In this document: in pieces, positions 12,493 to 13,021 of the stretch
Numbering within the stretch: the first letter of the stretch is position 1
Layout of the letters: each line of letters starts with the position of its first letter
Source: Escherichia phage SHEFM2K
Reading direction: 5' to 3' (one strand)
DNA length: 64,000 bases
Sequence record: PQ390715.1
Position numbers and translations under genes: made by a program
The notes under the pieces: model-generated
Databases searched by the model: none
What the model saw: only the letters and a program-made list of their open reading frames with translations
What the model was told of the DNA's origin: nothing

Positions 12493-12863
12493 CAGTACTC
12501 AACCTCTACATAAATAGATTCAGGAAACTTAGTCATATAATCTTCTGGATAGTTCTGCATTACTTTGATCATTTCTGCCTGTGTAGCACGGACGTATTCA
12601 ATTGGTGCTCCTGGTAAATTCCAGACAGTACTTTCCTGAAAGAATTCCTCTTCTGACAGTACTGTCAGATTTACAAAATCATTACGGTAATTTTTTGAAT
12701 CATCATATGTGAAGATTTTAAAAGACCCATTTTCATATAGTACAAGAACAAAATGGGAGAATTTTTGTAATGCACCACCAAGGCTTTCCACGACCGCATG
12801 ATTCAGTGTACAGATGACCTCTTTTTTCCTCATACCGAATTGAATTCTAATTTCTTTTTTCAT
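12492..12863 (-). CDS. hypothetical protein, FamA
   Basis: EEEFFQESTV. Confidence 0.7.
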   Translation of the reverse strand: MKKEIRIQFGMRKKEVICTLNHAVVESLGGALQKFSHFVLVLYENGSFKIFTYDDSKNYRNDFVNLTVLSEEEFFQESTVWNLPGAPIEYVRATQAEMIKVMQNYPEDYMTKFPESIYVEVEY

Positions 12864-13021
12864 AAAATCTCCTTCAGATTAGTACTGAATTTGTACAGAA
12901 TATTAGAACTGTATACAGCCTCTGTATCTGTATCCATAATCAAATCACCTTTGTTTAAATTACAAAAGTACTGATAACTGTGCTTAAAAGAATGTACTGA
13001 TATTAAAAAATCAAATTCCAT
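12860..13021 (-). pseudogene. truncated duplicate of the 5' end of ORF 12136-12492 (53-aa remnant ORF)
   Basis: 12929-13021 nearly identical to 12408-12492; encodes MEFDFLISVH.. then diverges; embedded in ATGA-coupled array. Confidence 0.5.

Follow-up and report, generated by a model that had tools for sequence, protein, structure and literature searches.

A 53-codon chimeric reading frame as a probable recombination scar at the border of a repeat-bracketed gene module in Asteriusvirus jumbo phages

The 64,000-nt stretch of Escherichia phage SHEFM2K analysed here (PQ390715.1; hereafter the window) contains, on its minus strand, a 53-codon reading frame with stop codon (12860..13021) that is chimeric. 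Codons 1-26 are of the type found at the start of a nearby 357-nt gene, whereas codons 27-53 are of the type found at the 3′ end of A4_364, a gene of phage A4. We consider it likely that recombination left this small ORF as a scar where an exchanged module ends, and that it is no decayed copy of its neighbour. The duplicated gene start forms one arm of an 85-nt direct repeat, and the two arms bracket a 529-bp unit that consists of the chimera's tail and the whole of a 372-nt gene (12492..12863). The first-pass annotation had overlooked both this extra gene between the repeats and the behaviour of the unit, which is a presence/absence polymorphism exchanged between diverged phages.

The window belongs to the Asteriusvirus jumbo coliphages (121Q/PBECO4/G17 group), and the region has matches in 35-36 phage records in all. 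G17 agrees with it at 99.3% over 5.5 kb, and in that phage the five genes treated here are 100% identical. All genes around the locus lie on the minus strand and are tightly packed, with overlapping stops and starts. The 357-nt gene (12136..12492, minus strand; 118 aa, phrog_15629) is full length, and it is its 5′ end that is duplicated. Upstream lies a 378-nt paralog (13021..13398, minus strand; 125 aa, phrog_15629) that directly abuts the 357-nt gene in module-free phages. The 372-nt gene (minus strand; 123 aa, phrog_13866, motif FQESTVWN) is the cargo of the module. These neighbours are full members of their families, phrog_15629 and phrog_13866, which are found in Asteriusvirus and RaK2-like jumbo phages.

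The locus is part of an array of small paralogs, and a motif scan finds at least 23 copies of FQxx[LT][VI][FYW][DN] between 1400 and 22300. The array proteins match only functionally uncharacterised PHROGs families (phrog_15629, 13866, 9317 and others), and a Pfam search with ten of them gave nothing above threshold. Likewise, an AF2 model of one member with the FQ motif (pLDDT 86) had no informative match in PDB or BFVD, and literature searches on Asteriusvirus paralog families and variable regions turned up no earlier description, either of the family or of this locus. With the broader pattern FQxx[LTIVM][VILM][FYWHM][DNES], at least 23 minus-strand ORFs are found in the same interval, acidic residues lying mostly before the motif; these paralogs form a very large superfamily spread over several PHROGs. 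The 378-nt gene has a further ATG upstream that produces a spurious 172-aa extension, and the E9.1 homolog is annotated in this form as a 507-nt CDS. Its homolog in phAPEC6 (gp447c, 1472-1849 of the fetched locus L016) is annotated as 'amidohydrolase 3', for which the window protein has no Pfam support. The intergenic stretch upstream of the 378-nt gene (13440-13580) carries runs of G and C (ggcggcgggg, gacccccccc) that are unusual for an AT-rich genome.

The direct repeat spans 12939..13023 and 12410..12494, 85 nt with 82 identical positions (96%) and a start-to-start spacing of 529 nt. Allowing up to three mismatches, exactly two copies occur in the 64 kb, against 0.00 expected from 100 shuffles. 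No other repeat in the 24-kb paralog array exceeds 90% identity; those between the other paralogs reach 60-81%. In transcription order, the upstream copy (12939..13023, minus strand) comprises the TGA of the preceding gene, the ATG that it overlaps and codons 1-27 of the small ORF, and the downstream copy (12410..12494, minus strand) is the genuine 5′ end of the 357-nt gene. A near-identical duplicated segment at the start of this gene, as reported in the first pass, is therefore real, and the 96% identity agrees with the recent origin proposed for it. The limits given then (12929-13021 against 12408-12492) overran the inner end by about 10 nt: bases 12929-12938 match nothing anywhere in gene 12136-12492.

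Within the repeat, neither copy contains a promoter-like or terminator-like site on the minus strand, where the site scan was no richer than in shuffled sequence, and RNA folding of the repeats is not significant (z -1.3 and -2.0). Both copies contain a 9-bp hairpin (CUUUUGU..ACAAAGG, minus strand, 12948-12970 and 12419-12441) that in the small ORF lies directly 5′ of the fusion junction. This hairpin may have favoured a template switch or break, although the repeats as a whole show no significant folding. The first 83 nt of the 357-nt gene (12410-12492) are far better conserved between lineages than the remainder (12136-12409), with three of 83 positions differing from 121Q against 42 of 274 in the rest, and one of 83 differing from Turkey3 against 27 of 274. 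Recombination could have homogenised this segment, or the gene start could be constrained.

The first-pass reading of the small ORF as a truncated, in-frame and translationally coupled duplicate of the start of gene 12136-12492 holds for its first half. The product begins MEFDFLISVHSFKHSYQYFCNLNKGD, where the 357-nt gene reads ...HTFKHS..., and residues 1-39 match positions 1-39 of the 121 in phrog_15629 (E 1.2e-9). Coupling to the next gene is through an ATGA overlap (12860-12863), as had been noted; the same overlap had been claimed for the upstream side, where the preceding gene instead joins the ORF through TGATG, a 1-nt overlap at 13021. The ORF is annotated as a hypothetical protein in G17, slurp01, BF17, phAPEC6, CRJP21 and Turkey3.

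The second half has a different origin. In an alignment of the window, 121Q, Turkey3 and A4, similarity to the 357-nt gene ends, and similarity to A4_364 and 121Q begins, at an 8-nt microhomology, GATTTGAT (12939..12946, minus strand), which reads GATTTRAT in the 357-nt type and CAGGATTTGATTATGG in A4_364. The alternative proposed first was that a complete tandem duplicate of gene 12136-12492 had suffered an internal deletion, joining codon 26 to a point near its own motif and leading to early termination. We judge this highly unlikely. The first 83 nt are indeed a 96% copy of the gene start, both genes carry an FQ-type motif, and a faint YKF...L pattern is common to the tails. Past the junction, however, direct alignment with gene 12136-12492 yields nothing alignable, and blastn recovers nucleotides 1-83 alone. 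The two sides of the supposed deletion do not share a parent, because the 3′ side follows the end of A4_364 at 87.5% identity over 144 nt, 63 of which the window has since lost. The similarity once seen between LIMDTDTEA and LMDTAELFQ is spurious, since LIMD comes after the donor's FQQ and not before a motif. Finally, a different gene lies between the two copies, which are thus not adjacent tandem copies.

A4_364 encodes 192 aa and lies directly upstream of A4's copy of the 372-nt gene. Its last 48 codons are LIMDVDSAATYSSNVLCKEFQNSKILELLYIADCNILYKFCTHLKEIL, and the corresponding 121Q sequence is LIMDTDTEVVYSSNVLCKEFQNSKMLELLCIADCNILYKFSTNLKEIL. The foreign tail starts right after the donor's FQQ and runs for 27 codons in the window and 48 in 121Q, where it differs from the A4_364 3′ end at 18 of 144 nt. 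Together with the following gene it forms a tract of 515 nt common to A4 and 121Q (92.6% identity), which breaks off sharply at GATTTGAT and, on the other side, at TGATGGA, where the stop of the 372-nt gene overlaps the next start. The 372-nt gene itself is 95% identical in A4 despite unrelated surroundings: the A4 genes around the tract are unrelated to those of the window, and protein-level comparison of the two loci shows no synteny beyond the module. A4_364 matches nothing in PHROGs or Pfam. When hhalign places its FQQDLIMD on the family's FQESLVFD the score is poor (E 0.47, probability 0.12), yet the motif expression fits, and we would call A4_364 a different gene with a family-like motif.

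Within the searches made, full-length A4_364 occurs only in A4 and on one SRA contig. A tblastn search of 50,697 phage records returned A4 and the 121Q tail and nothing else, and IMG/VR gave 121Q itself and one distant match (38% identity). A search of 5.8 billion proteins added one relative at 97%, encoded on an SRA contig of 3.6 kb that has the same gene order locally and stops right after the 372-nt gene, and two metagenome scans for the donor arrangement found nothing. Neither the order of a full-length A4_364-type gene, the 372-nt gene and the 357-nt gene nor any other intermediate genome was found in phage records or in protein, IMG/VR and metagenome searches.

The tail has been shortened further in the window lineage. 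The 121Q version of the ORF, 121Q_366, has 74 codons against 53 in the window form. At the site concerned, 121Q and A4 have AATGTTCTGT, followed by 53 nt and then by AATATTCTGT, and the window retains a single decamer, AATATTCTGT (12895..12904, minus strand), so that the deletion of 63 nt falls exactly between these 10-nt repeats and keeps the frame. The same 63 nt are missing in G17, BF17, slurp01, phAPEC6, EC22.5-2, CRJP21 and Turkey3. An internal deletion, as first suggested, thus exists, but it lies inside the foreign tail and not in the copy of the duplicated gene.

Based on gene-by-gene blastn of 19 fetched loci and on query-coverage classes, so that some absences are judged by coverage, the unit occurs in at least 10 relatives and is missing from about 20. 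It is present in the window, G17, BF17, EC22.5-2, CRJP21 and phAPEC6, and also in ECO103 4-12-1, slurp01, 121Q, Turkey3, Sharanji and two metagenome or SRA contigs. It is absent from E9.1, PBECO4, JP4, SP27, fEgEco12, TH47, WPEC3, Ec-M-J and others, in which the 378-nt gene stands directly before the 357-nt gene. An array of paralogs is a classic source of mis-joins in assembly, which could create a false duplicate. The architecture nevertheless recurs in two environmental assemblies and in no fewer than 10 phage genomes sequenced independently, and both copies of the repeat carry variants specific to their lineages. The exact 53-aa product is found in the same context on one ENA and one SRA assembly, which therefore practically excludes an assembly artefact, a reading to which we attach next to no probability.

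Pairwise comparisons show that the unit has sharp limits. Sliding identity places the neighbouring genes of Turkey3 and fEgEco12 at about 98-100% on either side (92-98% in part of the intergenic stretch upstream), and exactly the unit sets the two apart; the window and E9.1, with flanks likewise about 98-100% identical, are set apart in the same way. Each pair may reflect a gain in one phage or a loss in the other, so that the window lineage may have acquired the unit or E9.1 may have shed it. The window and Turkey3 present the opposite picture: identity is 80-88% in the 378-nt gene and 77-88% in most blocks past the repeat, whereas it is 100% across the unit. The identical run measures 562 nt (12413..12974, minus strand) and covers the module and the inner parts of both repeat copies; mismatches in its flanks number 55 of 377 and 27 of 274 (14.6% and 9.9%). 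A fully identical run of this length between flanks of about 85-90% identity is not explained by shared ancestry, and therefore the unit moved between these backgrounds recently.

The repeat copies record where exchange took place. In Turkey3, the upstream copy has the native bases of fEgEco12 and TH47 up to nt 47, and the downstream copy is of the window type at nt 31, 36, 40 and 47 and native again from nt 81. Both crossovers therefore fell between nt 47 and nt 81 of the repeat. Such a pattern would result from a single crossover of a circle, carrying one repeat and the cargo, into the resident repeat, or from two unequal homologous crossovers. The window's upstream copy has T and T at nt 31 and 36, as does the single copy of the module-free PBECO4, and its downstream copy has A and C, as do JP4 and SP27, both module-free. 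That both window haplotypes occur among unit-free genomes is compatible with the unit popping out at different points.

Several further rearrangements are visible at the locus. In slurp01 (L013, 1993-2519), a 53-codon ORF identical to that of the window (100%) is combined with a 369-nt version of the cargo resembling that of 121Q and A4 (96.5%), which would imply a further crossover inside the module. The upstream copy of 121Q (L003) and CRJP21 (L015) is densely altered between nt 31 and 55 of the small ORF, where 13 substitutions fall in some 25 nt and change SFKHSYQYF to TVKGAPQYL, a sequence seen in no copy of the 357-nt gene examined. This patch may come from a divergent allele by gene conversion, and the environmental sequence P0004 (...HTFKGTHQYF...) is partly similar to it. 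On the metagenome contigs L021-L023, which carry P0004, the 378-nt gene is missing too and the 357-nt gene type comes first after the intergenic region, yet another arrangement of the locus. The SRA contig L024 (3001-3330) encodes a 109-aa protein, P0008, with an N-terminal half of the 378-nt type and a C-terminal half of the 357-nt type; its fusion point is the conserved LFQ..LVFDKKYICT region, and it represents a second, independent recombinant between paralogs at this locus. Elsewhere in the array, a 492-nt gene of the window (11279-11770) is replaced in Turkey3, WPEC3, fEgEco12 and Ec-M-J by a 186-nt ORF plus an ORF of 345 or 417 nt.

A discrete, sharp-ended unit within a direct repeat, present or absent in otherwise identical genomes and found also in the unrelated context of phage A4, could suggest an autonomous mobile element, either transposon-like or a homing cassette, with the 85-nt repeat as its target-site duplication. 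We regard this as extremely unlikely. The unit ends lack terminal inverted repeats, and the cargo and its neighbours have no Pfam match, so no transposase, integrase or homing nuclease domain was found. In A4 the unit has no flanking repeat, and its left end runs on into a full-length gene. To our knowledge, 85 nt also far exceeds the target-site duplications that have been described.

The observations can be accommodated by the following sequence of events. On the sequence comparison, one illegitimate join at GATTTGAT is certain. In this first step, which can be read directly from the aligned genes, a microhomology-mediated event joined the first 83 nt of a gene of the 357-nt type to the last ~144 nt of one of the A4_364 type. 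The tail contains the Shine-Dalgarno sequence and the overlapping stop/start of the 372-nt gene, and the resulting order is R, tail, 372-nt gene, R and remainder of the 357-nt gene, R standing for the 85-nt repeat. Possible routes to the first fusion are a deletion in an ancestor with two copies of the 357 type, an unequal crossover between genomes, or a template switch during replication, departing at GATTTGAT and resuming 83 nt behind, at TGATGGA. In a second step, equally legible in the alignment, a slip between the 10-nt repeats removed 63 nt of the tail in frame in the window lineage.

The later steps we infer from haplotypes and identity profiles. The two copies of R would act as homology arms through which the unit enters genomes with a single R and pops out again, either between co-infecting phages or by way of an excised circle with one R and the cargo. 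These phages encode a RecA/UvsX-type recombinase of their own; a recombinase A gene has been reported in Asteriusvirus Sharanji (PMC11895373). The genus would as a result be polymorphic for the presence of the unit, and diverged backgrounds would share an identical module. Finally, the small ORF would be translated, and its 3′ end would bring ribosomes and the Shine-Dalgarno sequence to the 372-nt gene. In a more far-reaching version, which is possible but doubtful, the duplicated 5′ segment is a portable homology arm and the 372-nt gene a circle-borne cassette traded during co-infection, analogous to the PeSL mini-circles of T4-type phages but built on coding sequence, the leader being kept in frame because the cargo depends on translation through it for expression and the conservation of the 83 nt being a consequence or a cause of this traffic.

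The small ORF is probably translated, as its start overlaps the preceding stop (TGATG), its frame is intact and it ends in ATGA. The Shine-Dalgarno sequence of the 372-nt gene (AAGGAG, 12869..12874, minus strand) lies in the foreign tail 5 nt before the ATG (GAAGGAGATTTT ATG) and is conserved in A4, 121Q and Turkey3. The AF2 model of the full 118-aa protein (pLDDT 86, pTM 0.82) folds into five strands, two helices and a final strand; of these, residues 1-26 account for the strands at 5-12 and 15-21 alone, far less than the full fold. The peptide is predicted to keep these first two β-strands without the helix of the FQ motif. The motif that is invariant in phrog_15629, F-Q-x-x-L/T-V-F/Y/W-D/N (F69, Q70 and V74 in gene 12136-12492), is absent from the 53-aa product; relative to this family, positions 40-121 are missing, so that in functional terms the product counts as a fragment and not as a member. 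With two strands kept and the FQ-motif helix lost, the peptide therefore most likely has no function of its own; most likely the small ORF is translated as a leader with no role beyond what its 3′ end does for the downstream gene.

A selected micro-protein, serving as a β-hairpin decoy or partner for proteins of the 357-, 378- and 360-type or as a leader peptide for the 372-nt gene, appears unlikely. Neither the fusion nor the 63-nt deletion broke the frame, an outcome with a chance of about 1 in 9, and the start and stop overlaps with the neighbours were kept. The ORF is intact in all carriers examined (nine complete in the fetched stretch) and on two environmental contigs, and the 27-aa tail is invariant among the 53-codon versions. 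Given these features, the peptide, or translation through the ORF, may conceivably be under selection. The carriers are too similar, however, for this invariance to carry weight, and the dN/dS values of 0.17-0.49 for head and tail derive from very few substitutions. Moreover, about 20 related phages do entirely without the ORF, the 121Q/CRJP21 version changes six of the 26 N-terminal residues in one patch, the 372-nt gene has a strong Shine-Dalgarno sequence of its own, and the sole invariant residues of the family (F69, Q70 and V74) are missing. We thus retain the functionless leader as the better description.

The locus combines features of known forms of phage genome plasticity. Under the general model of phage mosaicism, illegitimate recombination mediated by microhomology leaves chimeric or fusion ORFs. 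The window resembles such fusions in the 8-nt microhomology at the join and the 10-nt repeats at the second deletion, and in its hybrid ORF from a join inside coding sequence; it is unlike them in that both events kept the frame and the stop/start overlaps, the scar still being a coupled gene of the operon. In the modular shuffling described as PeSL in T4-type phages, non-essential small genes in hyperplastic regions are bracketed by short direct repeats (Arbiol et al. 2010, PMC2839356; Comeau et al. 2014, PMC4122927). The first of these reports describes precise insertions and deletions of modules between close relatives, proposes recombination at the repeats and considers excised mini-circles as possible vectors (PMC2839356). 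Here too, direct repeats bracket the module, presence or absence is precise in near-identical genomes and the crossovers lie inside the repeats. Unlike the PeSL repeats, the repeat here is the coding 5′ end of the downstream gene and is no promoter-plus-terminator cassette, having neither a sigma-70-like promoter nor a terminator on the coding strand. It is also a single pair and not a dispersed repeat family.

The locus is thus a well-resolved new instance of known phage genome plasticity and not a new kind of system. For annotation, it means that G17_00559, PSLUR01_00268 and 121Q_366 are fusion remnants and do not form an independent gene family, and for comparative genomics that the 529-bp indel is unsuitable as a phylogenetic marker. 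For the design of exchanges in these phages, 85 nt of homology is evidently sufficient to trade a module. More generally, the window offers a base-resolved example of how the arrays of paralogous genes of unknown function in jumbo phages are remodelled: a join at a microhomology creates a hybrid ORF, and the 85-nt repeat that results would let a single gene come and go across lineages that are 10-15% diverged elsewhere.
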